Shown here: in pieces, positions 8,541 to 43,131 of the stretch
How positions within the stretch are numbered: position 1 is the first letter of the stretch
Layout of the letters: each line of letters opens with the position of its first letter
DNA from: an uncultured Clostridia bacterium
GTDB lineage: Bacteria > Bacillota > Clostridia > Christensenellales > UBA1242
DNA length: 46,996 nt
Assembly: GCA_946484195.1 (NCBI GenBank)
Contig: CAMLSW010000002.1
Span: forward strand, 1-46,996
Direction: 5' to 3'
The notes under the pieces: model-generated
Told to the model about the DNA's origin: nothing
Database searches by the model: none
Seen by the model: the letters and a program-made list of their open reading frames with translations, nothing else
Made by a program: the position numbers and the translations under genes

Positions 8541-9140
8541 ATGTTGAAAAAGATCAATGAGAGTTTGTTAAATAGTATACTTGAGTATATAAAGCTGTTT
8601 CAGCTTGAGAAGGGGAGAAGTCCGACTCAACGCGAGATAATGAAGGCGCTTAATATATCAAGTCTTTCGCTTGTCAGCCGATACGTCAAAATACTTGAGG
8701 ATAATAGAAGTATCAAAAGAGATACAAACGGCACTATTGATATTCAATTTAACGTCAACTTAAGCCAATCAATTTTAGCCCCAGTGGTTGGTGAGGTTAG
8801 ATGTGGTGAGCCCATATTTGCACAAGAAAACATAGAGTCTGTTTATCGACTTCCTACAGAAATCTTTGGACGTGACAATCTCTTTTTGTTGCACGCCAAG
8901 GGAGACAGTATGCTAGATGTAGGAATAAGGGAAGGAGATTTGCTTGTTGTCAAAAAATGTGAAACAGCAGAAAATGGCGACATTGTTGTGGCACTTCTTG
9001 ATGACTCGGCAACAGTCAAGAGGTTCTACAAGAGAAAAGACTATGTTGTTTTGCACCCCGAAAACGATAAATATGACGACATTATCACAAAAGATGTAAA
9101 AATTTTAGGAATTGTCAAGCAGTATATTCATAGTTTGTAA
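8541..9140 (+). CDS. lexA: LexA-type transcriptional repressor (S24 peptidase)
   Basis: N-terminal winged HTH, cleavage-site region 'VRCGEPI', Ser nucleophile 'GDSM' and Lys in 'ATVKRF'. Confidence 0.85.
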   Translation: MLKKINESLLNSILEYIKLFQLEKGRSPTQREIMKALNISSLSLVSRYVKILEDNRSIKRDTNGTIDIQFNVNLSQSILAPVVGEVRCGEPIFAQENIESVYRLPTEIFGRDNLFLLHAKGDSMLDVGIREGDLLVVKKCETAENGDIVVALLDDSATVKRFYKRKDYVVLHPENDKYDDIITKDVKILGIVKQYIHSL

Positions 9141-9151
9141 GGAGGCAATTT

Positions 9152-9340
9152 GTGAAATTAAAATTATTTTGCCCGCATTGTGGTAGGTGTTTAGGTGAGT
9201 GTATAGCCTCAGATGACACAAGTGATTGTAGAGTGCTAGTCAAACCGCCAATGAAATCAAAAAGAAAGCGTTTTATACATAATATGAAGTGTTTAAAATG
9301 CAAAAATGAGATTTTTATAGTAATGGAGCTCAAAGATTGA
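9152..9340 (+). CDS. small zinc-ribbon protein (Mu Com-like?)
   Basis: GTG start 6 nt after AAGGAGG and 12 nt after the lexA stop. Two CxxC pairs ('CPHC','CLKC') in 62 aa. Confidence 0.55.
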   Translation: MKLKLFCPHCGRCLGECIASDDTSDCRVLVKPPMKSKRKRFIHNMKCLKCKNEIFIVMELKD

Positions 9341-9494
9341 TTAAATGTAGACTTGCTTTTAATAAAAAGCTTAAAAATTGCTATAAAACAAGGTTTTCAA
9401 TAATAGAAAGTATAAAATTTTATAAATAGTCGACATAGCGAACCCAGCGTTCCAAAAGACATTTTTGTTTTTTGTTACGCTGGTTTTTTAATAT

Positions 9495-9521
9495 AAGCCA
9501 GCATTATGCTGGCTTTTTTTG
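9495..9521 (+). terminator. rho-independent terminator (second of two tandem hairpins)
   Basis: aagccagca / tgctggctt stem followed by a T7 run. A weaker hairpin plus T-run lies at 9444-9489. Confidence 0.8.
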
Positions 9522-9643
9522 TTGTGCTTTTATGTTTTTGTGCGGAAATTTAAAAATTTTTTAAAAAACTTTTTTCGTTCGGTCAAATGCTGTCCGATCG
9601 GCAATTGTAGACTTTAAATATCTTAAAAGGAGGTGGGTAGCGA

Positions 9644-9988
9644 ATGGACATTCGTAGCTGTAGCATTACGGCTGATATTTTGAATGTTCTTACTGACGGC
9701 AAAAAGCATACAATAGCTGAAATTGCTCAAATAGTCGAAGTCAGTGAAAAGACAGTAAGACGTCACATTCAGTCGCTTTCATATCGCTATCCAATAACCA
9801 CTTTTAAGGGAGGCATTGAAAGAGGAGGTGTAATACTTGAAAAGCAATATATTTATCAAGGCAGGGTAAGGACAAAAGACGAAATAGATGTAATTGTCGA
9901 GGCATTAAAATGTTATCAAAAAGAATGCAGTGATGTCGGCAAACAAAGCCTAATAAAATCATTGATTGAGGAGTACAGAATGGATTGA
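9644..9988 (+). CDS. HTH domain DNA-binding protein (114 aa)
   Basis: 'HTIAEIAQIVEVSEKTVRRHIQSL' helix-turn-helix. AGGAGG RBS. Confidence 0.7.
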   Translation: MDIRSCSITADILNVLTDGKKHTIAEIAQIVEVSEKTVRRHIQSLSYRYPITTFKGGIERGGVILEKQYIYQGRVRTKDEIDVIVEALKCYQKECSDVGKQSLIKSLIEEYRMD

Positions 9989-9998
9989 ATGCCAGCAT

Positions 9999-10029
9999 CC
10001 CCACAAATTTCACAATTTGCGGGGACCCC
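9999..10029. repeat. hairpin element H1
   Basis: ccccacaaatt-tcac-aatttgcgggg plus 'acccc'. Identical 31 nt at 10200-10230. Confidence 0.85.
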
Positions 10030-10199
10030 AAAAAATGCAACACGAAACTAGGCAGAAGCGCAGGGTGCGATGCTTAACAATTTAGTAGATTTTATTATGT
10101 AAAATTTGTATTTCCATCTCAAAGTCGCGCTGGCGTCGCAAACTACGCTCAGTCTAAGTTGCAGTAGCAACTCTAGCATTATCGCTCGTTTGCTCCTTT

Positions 10200-10230
10200 C
10201 CCCACAAATTTCACAATTTGCGGGGACCCC
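10200..10230. repeat. hairpin element H2 (identical to H1)
   Basis: Same 31 nt as 9999-10029. Confidence 0.85.
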
Positions 10231-10260
10231 GAGAAACTTGCATTTTCGTTTGGCGCGAGA

Positions 10261-10300
10261 ACACCCCTAAAAATCTAACGATTTTCAGGGAAACCCAAAG
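10261..10300. repeat. hairpin element H3 with flanks, present as a clean 40-bp indel
   Basis: ccctaaaaatc-taac-gattttcaggg plus 'aaaccc'. 'gcattttcgtttggcgcgaga' is followed directly by 'gaggcgaaaac' at 10544-10574, but by this 40-bp block at 10240-10311. Confidence 0.8.
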
Positions 10301-10394
10301 GAGGCGAAAACAAATGTTAGGGCGTAGCTTTTCGCTTTAAAAAAGCGAAAACAAGCAACAATGCAGTTTTCGCCTCTGGTGCCGAAGACGGGAG
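10301..10394. repeat. 94-bp direct repeat, copy 1 (tRNA-Leu 3' 18 nt plus 76 nt of downstream flank)
   Basis: Reads identically to 10564-10657. It ends at '..gacgggag', i.e. inside the T-loop of the tRNA sequence. Confidence 0.85.
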
Positions 10395-10400
10395 CCTTCA

Positions 10401-10431
10401 CCCTTAAAATTTGACAATTTTAAGGGAACCC
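10401..10431. repeat. hairpin element H4
   Basis: cccttaaaatt-tgac-aattttaaggg (perfect 11-bp stem) plus 'aaccc'. It abuts the duplicated tRNA-Leu 3' segment. Confidence 0.8.
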
Positions 10432-10563
10432 GAACGAAGAAAAAATCAATATGTAGTTTTTGTTAATATAAAAATAGATACATTTAAACCGCGTGGCGCA
10501 ATAAAGTCGAACTTTAAAAACAAAGTCGCGCAAAATGCGAATGCATTTTCGTTTGGCGCGAGA

Positions 10564-10657
10564 GAGGCGAAAACAAATGTTAGGGCGTAGCTTTTCGCTT
10601 TAAAAAAGCGAAAACAAGCAACAATGCAGTTTTCGCCTCTGGTGCCGAAGACGGGAG
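10564..10657. repeat. 94-bp direct repeat, copy 2 (overlaps the genuine tRNA-Leu 3' end)
   Basis: Identical to 10301-10394 by eye. Confidence 0.85.
10602..10636 (-). terminator. intrinsic terminator of tRNA-Leu
   Basis: On the minus strand: gcgaaaac..gttttcgc followed by T6, starting 4 nt after the CCA. Confidence 0.7.
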
Positions 10658-10725
10658 TCGAACCCGTATGAAGTTGCCCTCGACAGATTTTGAGTCTGTT
10701 GCGTCTGCCATTCCGCCACTTCGGC
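10640..10725 (-). tRNA. tRNA-Leu (anticodon CAA), class II with long variable arm, CCA encoded
   Basis: The reverse complement reads gccgaag-tg-gcggaatggcagacgc-a-acaga CTCAAAA tctgt-cgagggcaacttcat-acggg ttcgact cccgt-cttcggc-a-cca. Confidence 0.92.
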
Positions 10726-10978
10726 TTAAATTAAGTTACTTTTTAATTCTATCATAACTTGAAAAAATTTACAACTACATTTATAAAATTTTTTATTTTT
10801 TATCTATTTTTGTGCGAAAAAGAGAAATTATTTTATCAAAAATAGGTAAAAACTACAACCCCATATTTCAAAAAATAAAAAATTGTCAAACTTTTTCAAT
10901 GTCGAAAAAGGTCGAAAAAGTTATAAATTTATCTAATTTTATCAAATTTTTGGTCATTTTAATCCAAAAAAGTTATAA

Positions 10979-11000
10979 TTTTGTAAAATTTTTTACAAAA
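10979..11000. promoter_or_regulatory. perfect palindrome ttttgtaaaa-tt-ttttacaaaa (operator candidate)
   Basis: 10-bp arms, about 25 bp upstream of the -35 of the 11078 gene promoter. Confidence 0.35.
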
Positions 11001-11025
11001 ATATACAAAATGTTGGCACAAAGAA

Positions 11026-11055
11026 TTGACTATGGCATTTGGGTGAATTTATAAT
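11026..11055 (+). promoter_or_regulatory. promoter of the sigma-r4-like gene
   Basis: TTGACT, 18-nt spacer, TATAAT. Confidence 0.55.
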
Positions 11056-11077
11056 TCGTGTTAAAAGGAGAGAAAAT

Positions 11078-11590
11078 ATGAAATTAAATATATGGACTAA
11101 AACTACATTATACATTTACAAATATCTTGATACAATAGCTGATGCCATCGATAAACTCATAGAGAGGCAGGCATTAAATTCATTTTATTATAATCAAGCG
11201 AGCGCAGCCTCAAGTGATGTAGAGACTGTTTCAAATAAAATCATAGAACTTTCTCAGAGGAAAATCAACCTTATAAATATTAAGGTTGCAATAGACCAAT
11301 CACTTATGGAGATGCCACAAGAGCTTGCTCAACTTTTGATTGAGAGGTATATGGATGGCGAGCGTGGCGAAGATATTGCACTTAGACATAATTTTACTTT
11401 TAGAACATATTTTAGAAGGCTGTTAAAAGCAGAAGATTTTTTCTCTGCGGTTATGGCGAGTAAGGGCATTGATGAAAAAACTTTAAGCCAAAACCTTAAG
11501 CAAGAAAAGTGGGTAGTTGATATTTACAAATCGTTTTTAAGTAGAAAAATAGGGGAAGAGGCGAGCGAAGAGCAACTTATGATGGCTTAG
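11078..11590 (+). CDS. sigma-70 region-4-like / ArpU-RinA-type phage transcriptional regulator (170 aa)
   Basis: ATG at 11078 after AAAGGAGAG. 'RKINLINIKVAIDQSL..PQELAQLLIERYMDGERGEDIALRHNFTFRTYFRRL' matches the pattern of small phage sigma-like activators. Confidence 0.55.
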   Translation: MKLNIWTKTTLYIYKYLDTIADAIDKLIERQALNSFYYNQASAASSDVETVSNKIIELSQRKINLINIKVAIDQSLMEMPQELAQLLIERYMDGERGEDIALRHNFTFRTYFRRLLKAEDFFSAVMASKGIDEKTLSQNLKQEKWVVDIYKSFLSRKIGEEASEEQLMMA

Positions 11591-12384
11591 TTTAAGTCGC
11601 TATCGTCGAATTCGTAGTAGTCGCCGTGTCTTTTCTTTTTAGGTATTTTCTCTGTCACTTTGCCTAGTTTTTCTTTTGCAAAAGATGGCTTAATAAGAAG
11701 ATAGATGACAACCACACACGGCAGGCTGACACCGATTATAATAAAGGTCATAGCAACAGAAGATAGACCTTGCGGGTTTGTTGACGCGGTAAAATTAGGA
11801 TTTTCTACAACTGTAAAATATTCATTGTTTTCTGTGATGTAAAGCTTGTCACAAAAGACCGAGTAAACATAACCAAAGGTGTCATTTGAAAGCTTGCTAT
11901 AATACCAAAGATTGCTCTTGTCTGGTATGGAGTCGCCGTAGGCATATCCATAAAATACAACCGACTCTGTGAGGTAGGGGATATACGCCATCTCATATTG
12001 GTCTTGAAGGTAGGGCTGTGAGTACATATTCATACCATTTAATGCAAAAATTCTAAAATAGAGGGTGGGATAGGGCATAGAGGGCGTGCCTTCCATCGCA
12101 ACAACTTCGCTTTTCTTGACATAACCAAATATGTCGTCATACTGGGCATAATAAAAATCTTGATTTTCATCGTTAAGCAGTAAGACAAAATAGCTCTCAG
12201 GAATAGAAAAAAGTTGATAGTCACTGCTGTCAATAGGCTCTGAATAAAAATAGATGTCCTCTTGCTCTATTTTGGCAAAATATTTGCGGTCGGCTCGAGA
12301 AGTTGCGGGGGTGCTTGAAAATATGACAAAGGTCAAACAAAAAATTAAAGGTAATATTAATAATGATGACATTGATTTTCTCAT
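11587..12384 (-). CDS. secreted/membrane-anchored protein with two SH3b-like repeats and a C-terminal TM helix
   Basis: Signal peptide, 'GYVKKSEV' and 'GYVYSVF' SH3b-like ends, TM segment 'AMTFIIIGVSLPCVVVIYLLI', basic tail. It converges on the previous gene, and their stop codons overlap. Confidence 0.7.
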   Translation of the reverse strand: MRKSMSSLLILPLIFCLTFVIFSSTPATSRADRKYFAKIEQEDIYFYSEPIDSSDYQLFSIPESYFVLLLNDENQDFYYAQYDDIFGYVKKSEVVAMEGTPSMPYPTLYFRIFALNGMNMYSQPYLQDQYEMAYIPYLTESVVFYGYAYGDSIPDKSNLWYYSKLSNDTFGYVYSVFCDKLYITENNEYFTVVENPNFTASTNPQGLSSVAMTFIIIGVSLPCVVVIYLLIKPSFAKEKLGKVTEKIPKKKRHGDYYEFDDSDLN

Positions 12385-12471
12385 AGTTTCATTTTAAATT
12401 TTTAATTTGCGCTATGCAAGAAATAATTTGTCGATAAATTTAATTTTTAAAGGTATTTTGGTGGTTTAATT

Positions 12472-13902
12472 ATGAGTGATTTAATGTATAAACTTAAACT
12501 TGTGAAAAATGAGCTTGAAAAAAGAAAAAAGGATGATTTTTTGTCCCGCTATAATACAGGTGAAAAAATACATAAAAAACAACTTGAATTTCACAAATGT
12601 AACAAGAAAAATAGGTGGGTTTTTGGTGGCAATAGAAGTGGTAAAACCGAGTGTGGCGCCGTTGAGACAATCTATCTTGCCCGTGGCATACATCCATATA
12701 AAAAGAATAAGCCGATTTCTTGCTGGGTGGTGTCTTTATCTAAACAAGTGCAAAGAGATGTTGCGCAAGAAAAAATTTTGCACTATCTGCGAAAAGATTG
12801 GATAGAAAAAGTTGTTATGGCAAGCGGTAGGTCAGACAGCGCCGAGAGTGGTATCATTGATTTTATCTTGGTTAGAAATGTGTTTGGGTCGCTAAGTAAG
12901 ATTGGCTTTAAAAGTTGCGACCAAGGCAGAGAGAAGTTTCAAGGCTCATCTCTCGATTTTGTTTGGTTTGACGAAGAACCGCCTTATGATATCTATCAAG
13001 AGTGCCGTATGCGTGTGCTTGACAAAAAAGGTATGATTTTTGGCACGATGACACCGCTTAAAGGACTTACCTGGGTTTACAATGAAATTTATTTGAACGA
13101 GAATAATGATAGCGAGGTGTGGCATATCGAAATGGAGTGGGCGGATAACCCCTACCTTGATAAAGATGAGATTGAAGCAATGACTAAATCACTCTCACAA
13201 GATGAACTTGAAAGCAGAAGGTATGGCAAGTTTATGCAGTGTGGGGGGCTTGTCTATAGCGAATTTGATGAAAACGTAAATGTAATTGACCCTTTCGACG
13301 TTCCAAAAGAGTGGCAAGATAATATCTCCATAGACCCCGGACTCAATAATCCGCTCTCTGCGCATTGGTATTGCGAGGATTATGATGGCAATGTCTATGT
13401 GGTTGCCGAACACTATGCTCAAGGCAAAGATGTCTACTATCACGCAAATAAAATTAAAGAGATTTGTCAAAAATTAGATTGGCATTATACAAATGGCAAG
13501 ATTTCGGCACTGATTGATAGCGCCGCTATGCAAAGGACCCTTGCAAGCTCAAAAAGCGTGGTAGATTTGTTCTATGAAAATGATATTTTGGTCAATCCTA
13601 GGGTAAATAAAGATATGTTCAGCGGGATAAACACGGTTAAGAGATACTTAAAAGACGGCGAAGGTAAACCGCATCTATTTATTTTTAGAAACTGTACAAA
13701 CCTTATTAGAGAGATAAAATCTTATTGGTGGGGTGATAACGACCTTCCTATTAAAAGAGATGACCACTGCCTAGATGAGATGAGGTATTACCTTATGGAT
13801 AAACAGCTTACTCTTAGAATAAAGGATAAAAAGAACGAGATACAAAAGGATAAACAGCGCCTCATCAAGCAACTAAAAACGAGTAAGTATCATTTAAAGT
13901 AG
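12472..13902 (+). CDS. phage terminase large subunit (TerL), apparently intact
   Basis: Walker A 'GGNRSGKT', Walker B 'DFVWFDEE', nuclease-domain motifs 'SIDPG' and 'DDHCLDEMRY'. 476 aa. Confidence 0.85.
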   Translation: MSDLMYKLKLVKNELEKRKKDDFLSRYNTGEKIHKKQLEFHKCNKKNRWVFGGNRSGKTECGAVETIYLARGIHPYKKNKPISCWVVSLSKQVQRDVAQEKILHYLRKDWIEKVVMASGRSDSAESGIIDFILVRNVFGSLSKIGFKSCDQGREKFQGSSLDFVWFDEEPPYDIYQECRMRVLDKKGMIFGTMTPLKGLTWVYNEIYLNENNDSEVWHIEMEWADNPYLDKDEIEAMTKSLSQDELESRRYGKFMQCGGLVYSEFDENVNVIDPFDVPKEWQDNISIDPGLNNPLSAHWYCEDYDGNVYVVAEHYAQGKDVYYHANKIKEICQKLDWHYTNGKISALIDSAAMQRTLASSKSVVDLFYENDILVNPRVNKDMFSGINTVKRYLKDGEGKPHLFIFRNCTNLIREIKSYWWGDNDLPIKRDDHCLDEMRYYLMDKQLTLRIKDKKNEIQKDKQRLIKQLKTSKYHLK

Positions 13903-13974
13903 AATTTTTTATCAATATAAATAAGACAAATTATTTTATTAATAAAATAAATCCATAATGTGGTGGCTTTTCGT

Positions 13975-14002
13975 TTGTAAAATTTTTACTTTTTGGTATA
14001 AT
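13975..14002 (+). promoter_or_regulatory. promoter (extended -10) of the 14027 gene
   Basis: TTGTAA, 16-nt spacer ending in TGG, TATAAT. Confidence 0.55.
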
Positions 14003-14026
14003 AAAGTAAGAAAAGGGGTGTATCAT

Positions 14027-14623
14027 ATGAAAAGTCTGAAAGCAAAATTGCTTACAGTTATATCGACATTCATCCTTGCAATTGCTATGCTTATTGTCGG
14101 TGTTTGGGCGGTAGCAGAGAGCCAGCATATAAACCTAAGCGGAAGTGTTGACTTTACAATAGCCGATAATAGCCTATATATTAAAGATATACAAAGAAGA
14201 GATGCAGGCTCAACTGAACAAGGTACAACAATAGAAAATTTTATGCCAGGCTTTGTTCAAAGTGATTTTCAGTTGAATTTAGGGTCGTTTGATGCCACAA
14301 CAAATTTTGATTTAGTAATAGACATTGTAAATACCTCTACAACGATATATGAAGTTAATACAAACATAACAAATGGTTCAGTTAGCATAAGTGGAAGAAT
14401 AGAGGGAGACGGAGTACCAATAGTAGATGTGGCGACTGCCGACATTTCAGGGCAAATCATTTTAAGCGTAACAGTTACTTTGGCAGGACAAATAATCCTA
14501 GACCAAGTTGACATACCACTGACCGAGTATATTCCAATTGTTTATGACTACTTTACTTTTGTAATAAATGACGATAATCAAACAGTAACGATTTTTAATA
14601 ACAAAAATGTTATTTGCAAATAA
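14027..14623 (+). CDS. secreted protein; stand-alone (truncated?) paralog of the N-terminal domain of the 19048 LRR protein
   Basis: ATG at 14027 after AAAAGGGG. 'MKSLKAKLL..LIVGVWAVAESQHINLSGSVDFTI' aligns with the 19048 product over about 190 aa. It ends 'FTFVINDDNQTVTIFNN', where the paralog continues into LRRs. Confidence 0.75.
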   Translation: MKSLKAKLLTVISTFILAIAMLIVGVWAVAESQHINLSGSVDFTIADNSLYIKDIQRRDAGSTEQGTTIENFMPGFVQSDFQLNLGSFDATTNFDLVIDIVNTSTTIYEVNTNITNGSVSISGRIEGDGVPIVDVATADISGQIILSVTVTLAGQIILDQVDIPLTEYIPIVYDYFTFVINDDNQTVTIFNNKNVICK

Positions 14624-14962
14624 AAGTTGGTGGCGTTAAAAGTTAATTTTGTTGATATGTACGTTATAAATTGTACTTAATGTAATTATATAAAGCTATA
14701 TGTAACTAATATTATTATTTTTAATTATTAACAACTAAAACAAAAAGAAGAGAGATTAATTGTATTTTTGCAAAATCGCCCTTCTTTTTTTGATATGTTT
14801 ATATGCTAATATGAAAAAATATTGAGATAAAATAAAAAATTATTGATTAAAAAATATTAATAATTAAAATATTTTAAAAATATTTGCAAAAAATATAATT
14901 ATATGTTAAATTAAATATAGGATTTTACTTTACAATTTTGCCTGCATTTTTTAAGGTGAGTT

Positions 14963-17326
14963 ATGAAAAAAGTTTTTGTTTTTCTTTTTGCATTTTTGTT
15001 TTGTCTATCGGGTGGCATATTATTGACATCTTCTTTTAATATGGACAAGGTGGCAAGTGCCGAAGATATCAACTATAGTGAAATAAATGTATCAAATGGT
15101 CAACAACTGCTTTCAACGCTTAGCGCAAACTCAACCTACAACAATCCAAATGTAAAAATTGTTTTAACAGATGATATAGACCTTGAGGGGATAGACCTTT
15201 CTCCTGCCTATCTTGAAAGGCGGGTATTTACCGGCTTTTTTGAGGGCAATGGCTATGAAGTTTCAAACTTTACTCTTTCATCAAACACAAATGTCTACGG
15301 TCTTATACCTTATGCCTCTGGAGCAATTTTTCAAAACATAAGGATAACTGGCGCGGTAAGTTTTTCTTTCACTGAAAATAGCCTTCCTATCTATGCCGGC
15401 GTTTTGGTAGGTCAAGGCGAGAATGTGACGATTAAAAATTGCGAGCTTTACAATGTTACCGTGAATATGGTTGACGAGGGTGGCGAGCAGGTTGAAGAGC
15501 GTAGTGAGCAGACTATAAGCATACCTGTCAGTTCAAATTTGACCTTTGGTGGTATTATAGGGCTTGCAACAAGTTATTCAAGCGCACTTGAGTCAAGTTT
15601 GACAACACTCCAAAATTGCATAAACTATTATGACCTTCAAATCACATTGAACACGAATAGCCGCATTGCAGTTGGCGGTATTGTTGGCGCTCTCAACAGT
15701 GGAAGTAGGGTTATAAACTGCCTAAACTATGGCAATATCAATATTACAAAGTCCTCTCAAGTGACTGAGGCGAGCATTTCAAATCAGTACATTGGCGGTA
15801 TAGCAGGAGAGATAAGTGGCAATTCAACCACAATCAAAAACACAGCTTATGGCGGTGAAGTTTCTTCTAATATTACAGACGCAAACTTCTACGCCGGTAC
15901 ACTTGTTGGCTACTTAAACTGCGCACAGGCAAGCACTAATTACAATGTCAACTTTTCATATTGGTCACAAAGTGCTCTTAACTATTATGGTACTGGTTAT
16001 AGTATCACATCAGATTATTTGTCTCAGCAACCTGTAATTAATAGAGCGTTTTTATCCGATACCAGCCATTTTGATAGCGTAGAGCCTAGTTTTGACTTTG
16101 ACTATGATTTTACTATGATTGATGGCGAAATTTTACTCCAAAGATTTCAAGATTATACATTAGAATTTAATCCGTCTCTAGATAATGGAAATATTATATC
16201 AAGTGCAACTTTTGAAAGCGACAACCAATCTGCCACAAGCAGACCAATAAATGTTCGCTATGGCGAAGAAATAACAATTACTATAACTTTTGCCGATGAT
16301 TATGTGGGCTACTATAAACTATCTTCAACTACAGCGCCAATTTCAACTACGACAGGTCAGTTGTCAGCTGAGTACTACACAGCAACTCCACTTACAAGCT
16401 CGCGAGGTATTTATGGGTACGAGATTTTACTAACCGCGTGTGATAGAACCGATGGCGTATACTCCTTTACCTTAGATGAAGAGCAATATCTTTGCGAATT
16501 TGAAATTTCCGAGCAGGCAGACGCTGAAAGTCAAGGACTGCTTAGGAGAATAGGAGCAGATCGCTCAACTTCTCATATAAGTTTCCCATTTTCATATAGA
16601 AGTAGGTCGTTAAGCGTTAGAGCAGAGGGTAGTGGCGTCTATAGTTTCTCGCATTGGGAATTGTATTATAGAGATTCTAGCGGACAGTTTACCGAGCAAG
16701 TTTCTTTAAATGACGAAATTAGAACAAGCGCGGTAGTAACTGTTGAGTATGGTACAGCGCCTTGGACAGAAGAGTTTAAGCTTGTTGCATACTTCACCGA
16801 TGAAGAGGCTGTTTTGCTAACAATAGGGAACTATTCAAGAGAGGCGGTAAGTTCAATTACTGTTGATGAAACACCATACACTGGAGAAGAGATGAGAATT
16901 CCGCCAAATGGTACAATCACCCTTGAGATTACAACAAATTCTGGTTATGTTATGGATGTTGATGCTTTCATAGTTTTAATTCAAAGGTTATATGGTGACA
17001 ATACAACCGACGGTCTAGTATCTGACCCAATTGTCAATGAGGGCACAGGGCAAACGACCTATAGATTTAGAATTAATATGACCTATCTGCGTCCAAATAT
17101 TACCGACAATCAACTTCCACTTACTTTGATTATCACTGAAGATGGTTCGGCGAATGGCGATGATCTGCTATGGGTTTATATCGTTGTACCAATAGTTGCC
17201 GTTTTGATAATAGGTTTAATTATCTTCTTTATCATCAGACATCGTAGAGGTGGTGGCGGTGGTAAAAAGGCTAAAGCCGTCAAAGAGAGCGGAAAGAAAG
17301 AAAATTATAGAGATTATTATGTATAA
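14963..17326 (+). CDS. large surface protein with GLUG-type repeats, signal peptide and C-terminal TM anchor
   Basis: 787 aa. Repeated 'GGIIG/GGIVG/GGIAG' motifs. C-terminal TM segment followed by 'RHRRGGGGGKK'. Confidence 0.8.
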   Translation: MKKVFVFLFAFLFCLSGGILLTSSFNMDKVASAEDINYSEINVSNGQQLLSTLSANSTYNNPNVKIVLTDDIDLEGIDLSPAYLERRVFTGFFEGNGYEVSNFTLSSNTNVYGLIPYASGAIFQNIRITGAVSFSFTENSLPIYAGVLVGQGENVTIKNCELYNVTVNMVDEGGEQVEERSEQTISIPVSSNLTFGGIIGLATSYSSALESSLTTLQNCINYYDLQITLNTNSRIAVGGIVGALNSGSRVINCLNYGNINITKSSQVTEASISNQYIGGIAGEISGNSTTIKNTAYGGEVSSNITDANFYAGTLVGYLNCAQASTNYNVNFSYWSQSALNYYGTGYSITSDYLSQQPVINRAFLSDTSHFDSVEPSFDFDYDFTMIDGEILLQRFQDYTLEFNPSLDNGNIISSATFESDNQSATSRPINVRYGEEITITITFADDYVGYYKLSSTTAPISTTTGQLSAEYYTATPLTSSRGIYGYEILLTACDRTDGVYSFTLDEEQYLCEFEISEQADAESQGLLRRIGADRSTSHISFPFSYRSRSLSVRAEGSGVYSFSHWELYYRDSSGQFTEQVSLNDEIRTSAVVTVEYGTAPWTEEFKLVAYFTDEEAVLLTIGNYSREAVSSITVDETPYTGEEMRIPPNGTITLEITTNSGYVMDVDAFIVLIQRLYGDNTTDGLVSDPIVNEGTGQTTYRFRINMTYLRPNITDNQLPLTLIITEDGSANGDDLLWVYIVVPIVAVLIIGLIIFFIIRHRRGGGGGKKAKAVKESGKKENYRDYYV

Positions 17327-19047: not shown

Positions 19048-20460
19048 ATGAAAAGTTTAAGGATAAAATTATTTACAGGCATATCAATGTTTGTAGTTGC
19101 GCTTGCCTTACTCATTGTTGGTGTATGGGCGGTAGGTGAAACGCAGCACATCAATCTAAGTGGAAGTGTAAACTTTACAATATCTGATGACACGCTTTAC
19201 ATAAAGGATATACGTATTAGAGAGTCGAATGACTTAACAGGACAGGGCACAACAATTGATAATTTTTTGCCTGGATTTGTAAATGGTGACATTGATATAG
19301 ATTTAGGTACACTATCAGCAGACACAAGTTTTAGTTTACTTTTTGATGTTATAAACACTTCAGCAATACCTTATCAAGCAAGCACAACCTCCACTATTTC
19401 GAATGCAGTATTATCAGTAAGTGGAACCGTAGTTGGGGACGGAATAGAACCTAGCACTATAACCTCTGACACACAGTCATCAGGTACAATAATATTAACT
19501 GTTACAGCGTCTAGTGCAGGACTTGTAAATTTAGATGGGATAGTCATCACTCTTGAGCAATTGGTTTATGAAAATTTTGTTTTTGATGGGAATGGGGCTT
19601 TGCTAGGGTATTCAGGCTCAGATGCAGTTGTTGAGATACCTGCCTCTTACTCAATTATTGGTGAACCGGAAGATAAGAGTGTATATATCGAGAGCAGAGA
19701 TTTTCTTTATGAAAATATTCTTAATGATAATTATGACTTTTATAAATTAACAAATTATAAAATTATTAATGATAGCAGTGAATATAACTTTTCTGATATT
19801 GAAGAGTTGCTTTTTCACGAAAATTCTGAAGATTATTTCCCTTGCACAATTGAGTATAAAGATTTTTCAAATGTAACTTTTGTTTATGGAGATAATTATA
19901 TTGTAGATAAAGTTATAGGAGCGTTCAACTATAATCAAAATATACAAGGTGTAATATTACCTGCTAATATAAAAAGTATTGGAGCATTTTCATTTTCGTA
20001 TTGTGCAAATTTAAAAAACATAGATATTCCTGAAGGTGTAGAATACATTGGGATGGAAGCGTTTGGTGGAAGTGGATTAACATATGTTTCATTACCTAAT
20101 AATTTAATTGAAATAGGAGAAACTGCTTTTGTAAATTGTGTAGATTTGATAAATATAGATTTTAGCAAATGTAATGGTTTGGAAAAAATTGGTTATGGTG
20201 CATTTTCAGCCGATTATAGTTTGACATCAATAGATTTAAGTCAATGCACATTAATTAACTTTATAGATACCTTTGCATTTTATGATTGTTCAAATTTAAC
20301 TTCTTTTAAAATAGGTTCATCTACTCCACCATCTTTAGAAGTTGATGCATTTCTTATGGTCAATTCAGATTTCCAAATACAGGTTCCTTCTGCAAGCGTA
20401 AATGCTTATAAGTCAGCAAGTGGTTGGTCGTCCTACGCAAGCCAAATTGTTGGTTATTAA
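19048..20460 (+). CDS. surface protein: N-terminal signal/anchor plus beta-rich domain fused to BspA-type leucine-rich repeats
   Basis: 470 aa. The C-terminal half has repeated 'IP..V..IG..AF..C..L..I' units. AAAGGAGA RBS. Confidence 0.85.
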   Translation: MKSLRIKLFTGISMFVVALALLIVGVWAVGETQHINLSGSVNFTISDDTLYIKDIRIRESNDLTGQGTTIDNFLPGFVNGDIDIDLGTLSADTSFSLLFDVINTSAIPYQASTTSTISNAVLSVSGTVVGDGIEPSTITSDTQSSGTIILTVTASSAGLVNLDGIVITLEQLVYENFVFDGNGALLGYSGSDAVVEIPASYSIIGEPEDKSVYIESRDFLYENILNDNYDFYKLTNYKIINDSSEYNFSDIEELLFHENSEDYFPCTIEYKDFSNVTFVYGDNYIVDKVIGAFNYNQNIQGVILPANIKSIGAFSFSYCANLKNIDIPEGVEYIGMEAFGGSGLTYVSLPNNLIEIGETAFVNCVDLINIDFSKCNGLEKIGYGAFSADYSLTSIDLSQCTLINFIDTFAFYDCSNLTSFKIGSSTPPSLEVDAFLMVNSDFQIQVPSASVNAYKSASGWSSYASQIVGY

Positions 20461-20533: not shown

Positions 20534-21061
20534 ATGAGAGTTACGGCGGGTGAATTTAGAGGCAGGGTGCTGTGCGAAAATAAATATGAGCATATTAGGC
20601 CTACTGCCGATATGGTTAAACAAGCGATTTTTAATAAGCTTCAAGATAGAATTGTTGGTGCAAGTGTGCTTGACCTATTTTGTGGCACAGGCGCTCTTGG
20701 CATTGAGGCGGTTAGTCGAGGGGCTGGCAAGGTTATTTTTGTCGATAAAGACTATAGAAGTGTGGAGCTTACAAAAGCAAACCTTAAAAAGCTTGGCATA
20801 GTTGCAAAGGTTGTTAAAGCAAGTTATGAGCAGGCTATAAAAAGCCTTGCAGGGCAGAAGTTTGACATCATTATCTTAGACCCACCATACAAAAGTGGAG
20901 TCTATGAAGATTGCATCCAAAAACTTTATCAAAATGAACTTCTTGCAGAAGACGGTATCATAGTTTGTGAGCACGACCGCAAAGACCAATTTGATTTTTC
21001 GCCATTTGAGGTCATTGACGAGAAGAGATATGGTATAAAGATGGTGACATATTTAAAATAA
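20534..21061 (+). CDS. rsmD: 16S rRNA (guanine966-N2)-methyltransferase RsmD
   Basis: 'DLFCGTGALGIEAVSRGA' SAM motif and 'ILDPPY' motif. 175 aa. Confidence 0.85.
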   Translation: MRVTAGEFRGRVLCENKYEHIRPTADMVKQAIFNKLQDRIVGASVLDLFCGTGALGIEAVSRGAGKVIFVDKDYRSVELTKANLKKLGIVAKVVKASYEQAIKSLAGQKFDIIILDPPYKSGVYEDCIQKLYQNELLAEDGIIVCEHDRKDQFDFSPFEVIDEKRYGIKMVTYLK

Positions 21062-21062
21062 T

Positions 21063-21094
21063 GCTCAATTTTTTAGTAATTAAAAAATTGAGCA
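21063..21094 (+). terminator. hairpin after rsmD
   Basis: gctcaatttttt / aaaaaattgagc 12-bp stem. Confidence 0.5.
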
Positions 21095-21141
21095 AAGTGT
21101 AGTAAAAAACGCATTAAGAATAACTAAAATTAAATTAAACT

Positions 21142-21187
21142 ACTATGCTGTGTTAAAAGCACACAAATTCTTTAGAAATTATATAAA
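21142..21187 (+). repeat. degenerate right-end-plus-flank fragment of the structured repeat
   Basis: 'actatgctgtg..aaaagcacacaaattctttagaaattatataaa' versus 21567-21617 'actatgtgatg..aaagcacgcaaattcgttagaatttataaaa'. Confidence 0.55.
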
Positions 21188-21225
21188 TAGTCATTATTTG
21201 CACGTTATTTGTATCATATTCAAAA

Positions 21226-21251
21226 AAGCCAATCGTTCGATTGGCTTTTTG
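21226..21251 (+). terminator. strong intrinsic terminator with no ORF upstream
   Basis: aagccaat / attggctt stem, 6-nt loop, T5. An A-run upstream makes it bidirectional. Confidence 0.65.
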
Positions 21252-21363
21252 TGTGCTAAAAAAATATTAGTGATTTTTTACGATGGTTTTTCATCTTGAT
21301 ATTTAAAATCAATTAAAAATTGACAAATTATAAATTTGGCACCATCTAATGTTCATATAATGC

Positions 21364-21440
21364 TATATTATCGGAAGCCGAACCAAGCACAACTTTAGTT
21401 GTATTTGAGTGAGGCTGATGGTTTTACATACTATGTGATG
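21364..21440 (+). ncRNA. structured repeat unit A (candidate small RNA)
   Basis: Conserved blocks tatattatcggaagccgaac / gtgaggctgatg / ctatgtgatg around a unit-specific hairpin. Promoter-like hexamers lie at 21320-21361 and a terminator hairpin follows directly. Confidence 0.5.
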
Positions 21441-21464
21441 AACACAATTTATTGTGTTTTTGCG
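21441..21464 (+). terminator. hairpin plus T-run immediately after unit A
   Basis: aacacaat-tt-attgtgtt followed by tttg. Confidence 0.6.
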
Positions 21465-21501
21465 TTTAGCAAAATTAAAACTTAACTTGTTTAAGTTTTA
21501 A

Positions 21502-21577
21502 CATCACATAGTTTATATTATCGGAAGCCGAACTTGCTTGCAAGGGTGAGGCTGATGTTTATACACACTATGTGATG
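21502..21577 (+). ncRNA. structured repeat unit B (76-nt near-continuous hairpin)
   Basis: The perfect 11-bp closing stem catcacatagt / actatgtgatg encloses the same conserved blocks as unit A, with a different apical hairpin cttg[cttg]caag. Confidence 0.5.
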
Positions 21578-21630
21578 GGCGGGCAAAGCACGCAAATTCG
21601 TTAGAATTTATAAAATTTATGATAATAAAA

Positions 21631-21654
21631 TTTTAACATCACATAGTTTATATT
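21631..21654 (+). repeat. solo left-end fragment of the structured repeat
   Basis: ttttaacatcacatagtttatatt is identical to 21497-21520. It overlaps the stop codon and last two codons of the GDPD gene. Confidence 0.8.
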
Positions 21655-22379
21655 TTAGGCTCAAAGTTTTCAAAGATTACATTGTCGCAATATTTTACGA
21701 CTTTAAGGTATTCGCTTTGGCTTGTAACCGTCCAAACAAGCAATGGAAGAGACTTAAATTTTCTTACAAATCTATTTGGCACGCGCTTTGCTTCATAGCT
21801 TATAAAGTCGGGTTTTGAAATCTTTTTATTGAGCATCATACGCTTTAGTGCGTATTTTTTTATAAATGAAAGCTTTTCACCTCTAAAGAAACCGGCAAGT
21901 TGACCTCTTAGTATATTAGGTGCGTGCTTATAGAAATATTCAAGCACATAAGGGTTAAAAGATTGCACAGCGTATTGACCTTTGTAGTCTTTAAGAAGGT
22001 CTATGACCTTTTTTTCAAGTTCGCCAACTTTGCCTTGATTTTTAATTTCAATCAAAAGTGGAACTCTACCATCAACGAACTTTAATGTCTCTTCAAAGGT
22101 TGGTATTTTTTCTTTGCTATCTTTAAGCTCAAGCATATCAAGGTCTGACTTATTCAAAAATTTGATATAGCCGTCATTATTGGTCAGTCTTGACAAACTC
22201 TCATCGTGAAAAACAACGACAGTGCCGTCGGCGATAAGTTGGACGTCAAGCTCAATAGGGTAGCCTTCATCAATTGCCCTTTCAAAAGCAGATAGTGAGT
22301 TTTCGGGATGTTGTTTATCGTGAAGCCCTCTGTGAGCAATAGGAGTTTCAACCAGCCAAGAATTAAATATATCGTCCAT
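21648..22379 (-). CDS. glycerophosphodiester phosphodiesterase family protein
   Basis: 'IAHRGLHD..PENS', 'ELDVQL', 'VFHDESL' GDPD motifs. ATG at 22379 lies 5 nt after AAGGTGG; the track start at 22388 is a GTG. Confidence 0.85.
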   Translation of the reverse strand: MDDIFNSWLVETPIAHRGLHDKQHPENSLSAFERAIDEGYPIELDVQLIADGTVVVFHDESLSRLTNNDGYIKFLNKSDLDMLELKDSKEKIPTFEETLKFVDGRVPLLIEIKNQGKVGELEKKVIDLLKDYKGQYAVQSFNPYVLEYFYKHAPNILRGQLAGFFRGEKLSFIKKYALKRMMLNKKISKPDFISYEAKRVPNRFVRKFKSLPLLVWTVTSQSEYLKVVKYCDNVIFENFEPKI

Positions 22380-22577
22380 AAGCACCACCTTTTATCAATT
22401 TATTTTATGCAAAAATAGCAAAATTTACGACAAAAAATAACAATATTTTTAAATATAAAACTTTATTTGTATGTAATTATAACATAACTATCTAAAAAAT
22501 CAAAACAAAAATAAAACTAAAAATAATAATTCGAACAAATAATTGATTTATTTGCAGTTTTTGTATATAATTTTAGA

Positions 22578-25679: not shown

Positions 25680-27749
25680 ATGGAAGACAATAATTTAAAC
25701 GGACAGCCACCTATTAGCGATGAAGAGTATGTCTATGATAAAGAGGGGATAGACAGAGTTATTGCTCAATTTAAAAATGATAATGGTAAGAAAGATAAGA
25801 AAAAAGATAAAGGAAATAACAATTATGATTATAATGAAGGCAAGGAAAGAAAGTTTAGTTTAAAAAGCTTTTTGATTGCATTTTTTATCATCATTGTACT
25901 TGCAGTTGCAGGCTTTTGTATATATTATTTTGCCTTTAGAGAAGAGGATGAGACACCTTCTAATGTGCTAAGCAACAATGAGGTGCTTGGCACTGTTAGA
26001 GTGCTAGAATCAGAGGGCAGTGGGAACAAAGTTGCAACGGCAATTCCAAACGGCGTTAGTCAGTTTATCGGCTGGACAAAGGGTAGTATGTATGATTCAA
26101 CCATCATATCAGAAGACCCAAGCTTGACTATCGATATTGATGACACATCTACATATTATGCAATATTTAATATGGAAGTTGAACCTTCTTTTACCTATAG
26201 AGGCATAGAGTATTGGCTTTATGAGGACGCTAAGAGGGCTGTAGTTATAGGCAATAGTTTTACAGATGCAATACTTGATATTCCTCGTGTAATATCATTA
26301 ACAGATGGCAACTATCAAGTATACAAAATATCTATGCAGTCGTTTGTTGACAACGATTATATCACAGACATTAGATTGTCAAGGGATATCATAGAAATTG
26401 AAAGCGAGGCATTTGTAAGATGCTCTAACATATCTAATATTGTGATTGACCCGCAAAACCTATATTATACAAGCCCTAGCAACGACTTTATTATAGAAAA
26501 TAGCACCAACAAATTAATTTTAGGACTAAGCACAGTTATTCCTGAAAATGTAACTTCTATTGCTCCAAGTGCATTCAATAGTGCAGATATACCAGAGATG
26601 TTCATACCAGAAGGCATAACAGAAATACCTTATAGATTATTCTATGAAAATAACAATATTGAGCTGGTTACAATTCCGTCTAGCGTTACAGAAATTGGAG
26701 AGTCTGCCTTTGCTAATTGCGCCAATCTCACTACCGTTGTTTTAAATGAAGGCTTGCAGACAATAAATGAAAGAGCGTTCGCCCAAACAAATGTAAATTC
26801 TATCACTATTCCTTCCACTGTAAAGACAATTAAAGATGAAGCGTTCTTAGAGTGCGACAATCTTACAAGTGTTGAATTTGCACAAAATTCTACTCTCGAA
26901 ACTGTTGGTCAGAGAGTGTTTACTAGAACTGCATTTTCGTCTATCACAATACCTGCAAGTATAAAAACAATGGGCAACTATTTGGTTAGCAATAATAGCA
27001 ACTTAAAAAAAGTAATCTTTGAAGACAATAGCCAAATTCAAAACATAGATAGGCAATTTGCAAATGTGGCTAATATTGAAAGCATAGATTTTGGTGATAA
27101 CAACTCATTGTTAACAATTGCAGACTATGCATTTGCTGACTATGGAAGCCTTACAAATGTTGATTTTGGACAAAACAGTAGTTTGTATAGGCTTGGAGAG
27201 GAGTGCTTCAGAGGTTGTGGCATTACAAGCATTGTTTTGCCAGCCACTCTTGCCGAAGTTGGAACTAACACCTTCCTTAATTGCAATGCTTTAACTGCAA
27301 TTACTTTTGAAGATGGAAGCAGGCTTGACACAGTTACAAGCGGTATGTTTTCATATATCACCTCACTCGAGTCAATCGACTTTGGTGACAATAGCAGTGT
27401 AATCGAAATTAGAGAGTCAGCGTTTGAAGGGCTTAGCAACTTGCTAGAGGTTGACTTTGGGCAAAACAGCATATTAAGTAAAATCTATGAAAGCGCATTC
27501 AGTGGAACATCAATAACAAGCATAACAATTCCTGCAAGCGTTGGCTATATTGGTCAAAGCGCGTTTGACTGTGATTATCTTGTATATGCAACCTTTGAAA
27601 GTGAAAAAGGTTATGATATTTATCAAAGAGTTAATGAAGAGCTAGTCAAAGCAACGACGATTGAGTCATCTTCTTTTGCAGACACCTCTGCTATGGCAAA
27701 CAACTTGAAAAACACCTATTGTAACTACGTTTGGATGATTGTTTCATAA
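25680..27749 (+). CDS. membrane-anchored BspA-type leucine-rich-repeat surface protein
   Basis: 689 aa. K/D-rich cytoplasmic N-terminus, one TM helix, then more than 12 'IP.SV..IG..AF..C..L' repeats. Confidence 0.85.
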   Translation: MEDNNLNGQPPISDEEYVYDKEGIDRVIAQFKNDNGKKDKKKDKGNNNYDYNEGKERKFSLKSFLIAFFIIIVLAVAGFCIYYFAFREEDETPSNVLSNNEVLGTVRVLESEGSGNKVATAIPNGVSQFIGWTKGSMYDSTIISEDPSLTIDIDDTSTYYAIFNMEVEPSFTYRGIEYWLYEDAKRAVVIGNSFTDAILDIPRVISLTDGNYQVYKISMQSFVDNDYITDIRLSRDIIEIESEAFVRCSNISNIVIDPQNLYYTSPSNDFIIENSTNKLILGLSTVIPENVTSIAPSAFNSADIPEMFIPEGITEIPYRLFYENNNIELVTIPSSVTEIGESAFANCANLTTVVLNEGLQTINERAFAQTNVNSITIPSTVKTIKDEAFLECDNLTSVEFAQNSTLETVGQRVFTRTAFSSITIPASIKTMGNYLVSNNSNLKKVIFEDNSQIQNIDRQFANVANIESIDFGDNNSLLTIADYAFADYGSLTNVDFGQNSSLYRLGEECFRGCGITSIVLPATLAEVGTNTFLNCNALTAITFEDGSRLDTVTSGMFSYITSLESIDFGDNSSVIEIRESAFEGLSNLLEVDFGQNSILSKIYESAFSGTSITSITIPASVGYIGQSAFDCDYLVYATFESEKGYDIYQRVNEELVKATTIESSSFADTSAMANNLKNTYCNYVWMIVS

Positions 27750-42510: not shown

Positions 42511-43131
42511 ATGTTTGCACTTTCGCTAACAGGTTTTAATAATTCAACTATACCAAGAGACATTAAAATAATAGGAGATTCTGCATTCCATAATTGCAGT
42601 GGACTTACAAGTATCAGTTTACCATCAAGTTTAACAAGTATAGAAAGTTCTGCATTCTATCGTTGCAGTGGACTTACAGGAGAGCTAAACTTAGGAGGAT
42701 GTACAAGTTTAACAAGTATAGGAAGTTCTGCATTCTGGTCTTGCAGTAGACTCACAAGTATCAGTTTACCATCAAGTTTAACAAGTATAGGAAATAGGGC
42801 ATTCTATGGTTGCAGCGGACTTACAGGAGAATTGAATTTAAGTAATTGTACAAATTTAACAAGTATAGGGAGGGATGCATTCCAATATTGCAGTGGACTT
42901 ACAAGTGTAGATTTAAGCGGATGTACAAGTTTAACAAGTATAGGAAGTAATGCATTCCAAAATTGCAGTGCTTTAGAGTCAGTTGTTTTCCCTGAAGGTT
43001 CAACTGGGTGGTATGTGACAACTTCTTCAACTGCAACAAGTGGGACGGATGTTGATGTAACAAATTCTAGCACCAACGCAAGCAATCTTAATGGGCAGTA
43101 TCGCACTTACTACTGGAAACGCAATGCTTAA
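42511..43131 (+). CDS. BspA-type leucine-rich-repeat protein fragment lacking any signal/anchor (5'-truncated gene or cassette)
   Basis: The ORF opens directly inside an LRR unit ('NSTIPRDIKIIGDSAFHNCSGLTSISLPSSLTSI'). DNA repeats are nearly identical: the 36-nt block 42608-42643 equals 42755-42790. Confidence 0.6.
   Translation: MFALSLTGFNNSTIPRDIKIIGDSAFHNCSGLTSISLPSSLTSIESSAFYRCSGLTGELNLGGCTSLTSIGSSAFWSCSRLTSISLPSSLTSIGNRAFYGCSGLTGELNLSNCTNLTSIGRDAFQYCSGLTSVDLSGCTSLTSIGSNAFQNCSALESVVFPEGSTGWYVTTSSTATSGTDVDVTNSSTNASNLNGQYRTYYWKRNA

Follow-up and report, generated by a model that had tools for sequence, protein, structure and literature searches.

Structured, non-autonomous interspersed repeats are an already known kind of bacterial element. 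One of them, bcr1, is a unit of ~155 bp flanked by TTTAT, whose cruciform-like fold is kept by compensatory changes and which is reported to be transcribed (PMC6542083, PMC3184786, PMC6199540). BOX elements are modular and can be tandemly repeated (PMC3184786). Insertion sequences that belong to the IS200/IS605 family are defined by the absence of inverted repeats and of target duplication, by insertion 3' of a fixed short sequence and by a hairpin at each end; the left end need not resemble the right one, in which three hairpins can be present (PMC7290912). The repeat considered here was recognized in a 46,996-nt stretch of DNA (hereafter, the window) from an uncultured Clostridia bacterium (contig CAMLSW010000002.1 of assembly GCA_946484195.1), where two units lie head to tail in the spacer between rsmD and a GDPD gene. 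It is new as a family and belongs to this known kind; a literature search with its conserved blocks returned unrelated primer matches only. The repeat is probably a site-specific, structured, non-autonomous mobile element, and not an RNA gene or a cis-regulator, and, as far as it has been sampled, the family is restricted to a clade of uncultured gut Clostridia.

The nearest described kind appears to be bcr1 together with the other group A repeats of Bacillus cereus (bcr1-bcr3). Compared by description, bcr1 and the present family have in common all the general features of the former except transcription: a size of ~150 bp (135-150 here), a Firmicutes host, tens of copies per genome, the lack of autonomy, flanking direct repeats (TTTAT in bcr1, TTTATATT, i.e., TTTAT(ATT), here) and a fold kept by compensatory changes, which in bcr1 is predicted to be two-lobed and cruciform-like. 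They differ in host clade, the B. cereus group on one side and an uncultured Clostridia lineage on the other, and in the five helices and head-to-tail arrays of the present element; moreover, no sequence similarity was detected by blastn of the array against 72,556 plasmids, including B. cereus group plasmids reported to carry bcr1. Miniature inverted-repeat transposable elements (MITEs) and the REP, BIME, BOX, RUP and ERIC repeats are likewise short, intergenic, multi-copy, structured and non-coding. However, the present repeat has neither the terminal inverted repeats nor the variable target duplication of MITEs and RUP, is much longer than REPs (20-40 bp) and lacks their GTAG or CGTC tag (PMC3733652), and forms arrays that are strictly head to tail, in contrast to MITE, REP, BOX, RUP and ERIC repeats. 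A further likeness is to integron attC sites and to the attP(+) site of CTX phage, which are imperfect hairpins, 60-140 nt long, whose unpaired centre is flanked by two paired boxes, with unpaired bases, an apical part of variable length, a structure conserved over sequence and head-to-tail units. The boxes of the present repeat nonetheless read GCCGAAC...GTGAGGC, unlike the RYYYAAC...GTTRRRY of the R''/R' boxes of attC, which in integrons line arrays of gene cassettes adjoining intI/attI, its copies are scattered over the chromosome, and no integrase, attI platform, ORF (open reading frame) or cargo gene was found with them. Classical MITEs, REPs and attC sites thus each fail at least one defining feature.

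The spacer that holds the array measures 586 nt, between rsmD (20534-21061, + strand) and the GDPD gene (21648-22388, - strand), and its longest ORF, the sole one of at least 40 aa, has 49 aa. A preliminary description of the window, made from the letters alone, had pointed out this lack of a plausible ORF and two copies of a ~76-nt motif, unit A (21364-21440) and unit B (21502-21577), and both observations were borne out. The two copies share the block TATATTATCGGAAGCCGAAC, identical at 20/20 positions, and a second block of 32 nt, GTGAGGCTGATG...CTATGTGATG, at 91% identity, and between these their apical hairpins are unrelated in sequence and paired in both. Unit B is closed, as described, by an 11-bp stem, CATCACATAGT/ACTATGTGATG, and the copy reported at the very start of the window is also real: the window contains exactly three occurrences each of the 14-mer ATCGGAAGCCGAAC and of the 12-mer GTGAGGCTGATG, one of them being at 1-53 on the minus strand. 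Such an occurrence is far beyond chance. The size of ~76 nt had to be abandoned, as flank alignment defines a conserved unit of 135-150 bp, from ATCGGAAGYC... to ...TTTTAACATCACATAGTTTATATT, with three further conserved hairpins. With these limits, 21631-21654, formerly read as a fragment of the left end, is the true 3' end of unit 2, while the supposed right-end fragment at 21142-21187 does derive from the family, but as a decayed internal piece (21142-21197) that falls below the threshold of the profile search for copies. The features of the window that belong to the family are as follows.

21364-21369, + strand: TATATT core on the left (here cTATATT), abutting the array on its 5' side; it is the half of the flanking direct repeat that belongs to the target, placed from the left-flank logo.
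21370-21519, + strand: unit 1, 150 nt, from ATCGG to CATCACATAGTTTATATT, with a long apical hairpin and tail type 2, delimited by the alignment of 64 distinct units.
21370-21422, + strand: domain 1 of unit 1, made of AUCG/UGGU, G.A/G.A, AGCC/GGCU, G.A/G.A, AC/GU and the apical hairpin CAAG-c-ACAAC[TTTA]GTTGT-a-TTTG.
21430-21440, + strand: 5' arm of stem P of unit 1 (ACTATGTGATG), which pairs with 21502-21512.
21442-21457, + strand: hairpin H2 of unit 1, ACACAA[TTTA]TTGTGT, with covariation across the family; formerly read as a terminator.
21458-21474, + strand: hairpin H2b of unit 1, TTTTGC[GTTTA]GCAAAA; the other tail type has AAATTC[GNNA]GAATTT at the equivalent place.
21475-21501, + strand: hairpin H3 of unit 1, TTAAAACTTAA[CTTGT]TTAAGTTTTAA, with three compensated variants in the family.
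21502-21519, + strand: 3' arm of stem P of unit 1 (CATCACATAGT) and terminal TTATATT, forming with 21520 onward the unit-unit junction.
21520-21654, + strand: unit 2, 135 nt, with a short CTTG-loop apical hairpin and tail type 1; its last bases are the native TTATATT overlapping the stop codon of the GDPD gene.
21142-21197, + strand: decayed piece from within a unit, covering part of the P arm, H2 and H2b, and 79% identical over 42 nt to 21585-21626.
1-52, - strand: third copy, cut by the window start; TTTATATT occupies 52-45 and is followed by the unit at 44-1; its site has an empty allele in contig L128.

In a longer contig, L127, the third copy opens an array of two or more units. Beyond the window, a genome scan with the exact pattern GGAAGCCGAA N5-35 GTGAGGCTGAT, run on one genome per species, matched at least 107 stretches. 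Among the matches listed, ~80 are true copies of the family, several per metagenome-assembled genome (MAG) and many of them at contig ends, and the hosts are solely low-GC gut MAGs named 'uncultured Clostridia' or 'uncultured Firmicutes'; GC-rich matches to the pattern were set aside as chance. A metagenome scan added 37 further loci, some labelled human gut, so that the two scans together place the dispersed family at more than 100 copies, and 64 distinct full units were recovered. A pattern scan of IMG/VR gave 0 matches, and blastn against phage and plasmid collections gave no match, leaving a phage or plasmid origin unsupported. Single units are the commonest form, and arrays of 2-4 also occur; these are strictly head to tail and mix unlike unit subtypes, a mixture that agrees with repeated insertion and not with simple duplication. 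In every array, the 5' side of the first unit is without the CATCACATAGT arm, since this arm belongs to the 3' end of the preceding unit; hence its absence from unit A. Finally, the distance from left end to right end is always ~115 nt among the copies, and no long element carrying the ends of the repeat was seen.

A third tail type, with a GCAAACTTGGTTTGC hairpin, is present in L010/L161 (2310-2470), and a diverged subfamily without the CATCACATAG arm lies upstream of full units in L043 and L148; judging from these sequences, the family appears broader than exact-pattern scans reveal. Of note, three assemblies (L018, L052 and L103) have an identical left flank, 'tagaacatttttgaaaataaattttttatgaatttaata', and three different sequences beyond a truncated unit, a divergence that comes either from rearrangement at the repeat or from a chimera made in assembly. 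Contigs from the metagenomes that hold the repeat (L137, L164, L165, L167 and L170) also share another repeated stretch, '...ccgcctgccttttttggcaaacttagtttgcatca', unrelated to it.

The repeat inserts in a fixed orientation and comes to lie directly 3' of a (T)(T)(T)ATATT that was already there. At the site of the window-start copy, the empty allele of the conspecific contig L128 reads ...ggtttttttattagTTTATATTagatgatttataaatccgag..., including ...ttattagTTTATATTagatgatttataaatcc, and the filled alleles (the window, L127 and L129) read ...ttattagTTTATATT|ATCGGAAGCC..., the element starting with ATCGG; the right junction, taken from L059, reads ...CATCACATAGTTTATATT|agatgatttataaatccgag, beginning agatgatttataaatcc. 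From these empty and filled alleles, the insertion amounts to n x (ATCGG...CATCACATAGTTTATATT) placed 3' of a single pre-existing TTTATATT. At the GDPD site, three contigs whose GDPD gene is 99% identical (L117, L118 and L121) have a 132-nt spacer that contains no unit and keeps a single TTATATT, in ...ttgTTATATTttaggctc, and the terminus of the window array coincides exactly with this native TTATATT at the GDPD stop codon; the site is also empty in more distant relatives. Presence or absence of the repeat is polymorphic among conspecific strains. Another empty-site comparison, of L099 with L092, was discarded, as the flanks were too diverged for the joint to be placed.

Flank logos, built from 72 left and 46 right flanks, define the two ends further. 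On the left, ATATT is 88-92% conserved and the outer TTT just 60-75%, and bases farther out follow the target and not the element. At the right end, TTTATATT is 85-98% conserved and is followed by A (72%), T (67%) and then background. ATATT stands at ~90% on both sides, and the AT that follows the core reaches at least 90% on the left, versus ~70% on the right. This contrast in conservation indicates that it is the target that provides the left repeat and the element that provides the right one. Deviations found in the left repeat have no counterpart in the right one, which rules out a target duplication made by staggered cuts, and no target duplication varying with the target sequence was seen. 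Terminal inverted repeats are absent as well: ATCGGAAGCC, at the left end, is not an inverted copy of ...CATAGTTTATATT, at the right. Since the element carries its own 3' ...CATCACATAGTTTATATT, the target is recreated with every insertion; a resident copy thus presents a perfect target at either end, and later insertions can thereby build head-to-tail arrays of unlike units.

Two further observations concern these sites. Left of the array, window positions 21062-21363 cannot be aligned with the conspecific empty allele (L117/L118), except for a shared bidirectional terminator-like hairpin at 21223-21250, and from this comparison the spacer at the GDPD site appears to have been remodelled by more than the insertion of the array. 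At 200-240, ~130 nt from the insertion site of the window-start copy, lies the reverse complement of a tRNA 3' half (TGGTGGACTGCGGGGGCTCGAACCCCCGACCC), which is not called as a gene by ARAGORN or Rfam and could be the remnant of an old attachment site.

The unit folds on the + strand into two domains, a hairpin (domain 1) and an 11-bp stem, P, enclosing three hairpins (domain 2), with predicted energies of -49.2 kcal/mol (z = -6.7) for unit 1 and -34.8 kcal/mol (z = -4.0) for unit 2. In its family form, domain 1 reads AUCG/UGGU, G.A/G.A, AGYC/GRCU, G.A/G.A, AC/GU and apical hairpin, and across 66 distinct sequences its standard pairs are present in 97.7% of cells, versus 27-48% when the partners are slid. 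Double-sided changes occur at five of its pairs, which comprise a C-G to U-A change found in nine sequences on three apical backgrounds and those of the apical stems (ACAAC/GUUGU and GCGAY/RUCGC); none of 500 shuffles reached the covariation score of the domain. H2 covaries at all 6 pairs, with at least 7 different fully paired stems across the family, H2b alternates between AAAUUC/GAAUUU and UUUUGC/GCAAAA, and H3 has three compensated forms. The three-hairpin fold is present in 56/63 tails. Comparison of the sequences shows the two tail types to be structural equivalents, with modules that recombine between units. Loops are variable and conservation is limited to stems and termini, with the strongest sequence conservation at the insertion junction. 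In arrays, 21502-21512 can alternatively pair with 21567-21577, thereby closing the 76-nt hairpin originally proposed.

The + strand is the more stable one in 61/64 units (mean of -39.8 versus -34.5 kcal/mol for the - strand) and its fold holds 243 G-U pairs versus 107 on the - strand, so that the fold belongs to one strand; by these folding models, the + strand is shown to be under selection to fold. The preliminary description had assigned the fold to this strand from its G-U pairs and had proposed a structure conserved without sequence, two insights that stand, the latter thanks to double-sided changes in the AGYC/GRCU helix, the apical stem and H2. The plain MITE of near-identical copies that it held out as a refutation is likewise not what the family looks like, given these compensatory changes and the lack of a variable target duplication. 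Its bulged GGA and asymmetric GAA/RGUGA loop, on the other hand, refold as two symmetric tandem G.A loops.

How would such an element move? We infer that it acts as a folded single strand that is mobilised in trans. At a circle or array junction, the joint TTTATATT|ATC would lie within an internal loop between two duplex arms conserved in sequence, CATCACATAGT/ACTATGTGATG and ATCG..AGCC/GGCU..UGGU, which would be the recognition site for the trans-supplied enzyme; this junction structure would correspond to the 76-nt hairpin first noticed as unit B. The leading, though tentative, candidate for the enzyme is an HUH single-strand transposase of IS200/IS605 (Y1) type, in which case the element would be a derivative comparable to the palindrome-associated transposable elements (PATEs), which retain only the ends of an IS200/IS605 element and are the nearest mechanistic model. 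This candidate draws on the match to the IS200/IS605 family definition and on a decayed IS200-like tnpA near one copy. PATEs and the present repeat have in common the absence of inverted repeats and of target duplication, insertion in one orientation on the 3' side of a short fixed sequence, a predicted hairpin close to either end and a short one-hairpin left end joined to a longer multi-hairpin right end (PMC7290912), and the strand-specific fold fits a single-strand logic. Differences are that no parent insertion sequence with matching ends was found around the copies, where the only trace is the decayed tnpA remnant, that the target is longer here, at 5-8 nt, and recurs at the 3' end of the element itself, that no pairing between a guide and a cleavage site is evident and that the orientation bias is weak.

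It seems rather improbable that no dedicated protein is involved. The element would then be viroid-like, a nearly fully paired single-stranded circle of ~140 nt with TTTATATT|ATC in a bubble between two conserved arms, inserted by a housekeeping recombinase of the host, or its transcript might work as an RNA of guide or bridge type, targeting insertion at TTTATATT. If true, such a route would be a mode of mobilisation undescribed for bacterial interspersed repeats, and it might explain bcr1-type repeats too.

Several results weigh against a mobile element of this sort, or against the part of the proposal that invokes an HUH enzyme. Foremost, neither an autonomous relative nor a helper gene was found in ~1.17 Mb of DNA around the copies. 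In this DNA, tblastn with two TnpA sequences retrieved no intact tnpA, and a zinc-ribbon filter retrieved no TnpB-like ORF; clustering of the ORFs near copies returned housekeeping families alone, with no reverse transcriptase or integrase seen, and Pfam found no transposase or integrase among 30 window proteins. The preliminary description had raised an HUH/Y1 transposase as a possible mobiliser, and what came of this is the single IS200-like remnant already mentioned: located at L025 207-370 (tblastn E = 3e-5), it is interrupted by a frameshift and an in-frame stop, is separated by 57 nt from the left end of a copy lying on the other strand, and had no homologue when used as a query. In addition, stem P is 94% paired (ACUAUGUGAUG/CAUCACAUAGU) and conserved in sequence with almost no covariation, and the GDPD site does not represent a clean insertion, since the DNA to the left of its array is unalignable. 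As for the HUH enzyme in particular, the end hairpins, which in IS200/IS605-derived elements are bound by TnpA, are unlike each other, domain 1 starting 0-6 nt from the left end and H3 ending 18 nt from the right end; inspection found no guide tetranucleotide matching the cleavage site, the sequence 5' of domain 1 being ATCGGA with no conserved A/T-rich guide, and the two tail types have different bases 5' of H3. The preference for A then T on the 3' side of the joint is not required by IS200/IS605 targeting. Truncated copies exist in both 5'- and 3'-truncated kinds, and one-sided truncation was accordingly rejected as a sign of rolling-circle copying. Lastly, the orientation of IS200/IS605-derived elements is tied to the direction of replication through the lagging-strand template; with the locally dominant gene strand as a proxy for replication direction, 54/91 arrays are co-oriented (p = 0.09).

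The main rival is that the folded element is moved by a tyrosine recombinase, either a dedicated integrase or a Xer-like enzyme of the host, with two duplex arms around an unpaired TTATATT recombining with double-stranded targets that have an ATATT core. We regard this as unlikely. It is modelled on attC and on CTX attP(+); the general plan of attC is arm-bubble-arm with extra-helical bases and an apical part of variable length. The geometry of the present unit, with its non-Watson-Crick or extra-helical bases and variable apex, matches that plan; its arms are conserved in sequence without covariation, as arms bound by a protein would be; and the likeness of targets to the junction extends to either side of the core (T at -11, A at -10, TTT at -8 to -6, A at +1, T at +2), with 12 nt identical between target and junction at one site. 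Re-creation of the core at both ends would explain arrays, and a Xer-like tyrosine recombinase ORF, judged from its N-terminal sequence alone, exists in the lineage (L006). Yet the RYYYAAC/GTTRRRY consensus is absent, the dyad symmetry of the arms is weak (~6/11 by eye), no integrase is found near any copy or in the window, and copies are scattered over many sites, with no single platform and no cargo. Furthermore, a circle of only 140 bp is implausible on physical grounds as double-stranded DNA, which makes the model dependent on a hypothetical single-stranded route. A likeness of the junction to dif/Xer sites was also considered and dropped, since the ~20/28 positions that match B. subtilis dif by eye are too weak a match in AT-rich DNA. 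Another possibility, to which we give the least credence of all, is an RNA intermediate, either retro-insertion primed by pairing of the 3' UUUAUAUU with the target or a self-cleaving or ligating, satellite-like RNA copied into DNA. Head-to-tail units, the RNA-like fold and TATATT at both ends are compatible with it, but priming from the 3' end predicts the opposite of what is observed, namely an element-side repeat on the right and a target-side one on the left, and neither a reverse transcriptase near copies nor a match to an Rfam ribozyme family was seen. The core of the hammerhead ribozyme is CUGANGA, from which the CUGAUGG of the element departs by eye; only UAUAUUA is common with loop B of the hairpin ribozyme, and the match to domain 5 of group II introns is too irregular, so that these identities, also assessed by eye, were rejected.

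The remaining alternatives give the unit a function in the host. That it is a small RNA gene or module (a k-turn or loop-E-like protein-binding RNA, or a guide or bridge-type RNA) whose spread as DNA is secondary seems very unlikely to us, even though the + strand folds better with many G-U pairs, several helices covary, a weak hairpin and T-run follow domain 1 in tail type 2, and the analogous bcr1 repeat was reported as transcribed (PMC3184786). The preliminary description had hesitated between a small RNA and a hairpin mobile element, and it is the mobile half that holds, the family being dispersed and multi-copy with a precise empty site, while the RNA gene is unsupported. The autonomous ~100-nt transcription unit that it proposed does not agree with the lack of a conserved promoter and with the occurrence of all four orientations of neighbouring genes. 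Sequences upstream of first units are unrelated between loci, and the hexamers that it read as a promoter before unit A have spacings of 19 and 30 nt, are not called by a promoter scan and lie in a flank unique to this locus. Similarly, the hairpin and T-run at 21441-21464, read as a terminator, correspond to the conserved H2 and are not called as a terminator, and tail type 1 has no T-run after H2. Loops are not conserved, and conservation peaks at the insertion junction. A k-turn consists of a C helix, a 3-nt bulge and tandem G.A/A.G pairs opening the NC helix; on the strand without the bulge, the A lies directly against the C helix. With RGU as the bulge, the opposite strand, AGCC-GA-A-C, leaves one extra A before the C helix, and fold programs give instead symmetric 2x2 G.A loops flanked by Watson-Crick pairs, twice; the suggested k-turn or loop-E site, with a 3-nt bulge followed by G.A pairs, hence lost its geometric basis. 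In agreement with the earlier statement that no known riboswitch or ribozyme was recognized, Rfam reported only tRNA in the whole window at the gathering score and, for 21050-21700 at E <= 10, weak below-gathering matches to unrelated families (snoRNA, miRNA, sRNA), none of them relevant. A coding role was rejected too: the 6-codon ORF ATG GTT ATA CAT ACT ATG TGA, after GAGG, is disrupted by a 2-nt deletion in 15/64 units, and some units lack the ATG. More improbable still is a cis-acting module kept by the host, such as a stabiliser of mRNA 3' ends, a terminator or an insulator, as proposed for REP and BOX-type repeats. It would account for the very stable hairpins, for the strictly intergenic location (0/75 arrays inside long ORFs) and for the upstream gene being co-oriented in 41 cases versus 22. 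However, the downstream gene is split 25:25, divergent-promoter contexts are present, several copies separate a promoter from the ribosome-binding site of the co-oriented gene downstream of it, and the conserved termini, fixed target and presence/absence polymorphism are left unexplained; such effects could, besides, be a side effect of a mobile element instead of an alternative to it.

A mobile element, the reading that we retain, gives uncultured gut Clostridia a well-defined repeat family, with exact ends, target and fold and with natural empty and filled alleles. It would also be a second independent example of a bcr1-like class of ~150-bp structured elements that are TTTAT-flanked and lack a known enzyme. 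The clean junctions make the mechanism testable with a 76-nt oligonucleotide. On a practical level, the repeats break short-read assemblies, many contigs, including the window, ending inside a copy, so that knowledge of the family helps the assembly and annotation of MAGs and avoids mis-annotation of its members as riboswitches or small RNAs; the repeats may also mediate rearrangements.

Elsewhere in the window, a gene for a phage terminase large subunit (12472-13902) stands alone among ORFs without Pfam matches (11039-12384 and 13958-17326), and this region adjoins a tRNA-Leu (10640-10725) and a LexA-like gene (8541-9140); from this gene content, 8541-17326 looks like a prophage remnant or a phage satellite. 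The window also encodes three leucine-rich-repeat proteins of BspA type, at 19048-20460, 25680-27749 and 42511-43131, the last two having LRR_5 matches in Pfam and the first being assigned from sequence alone.

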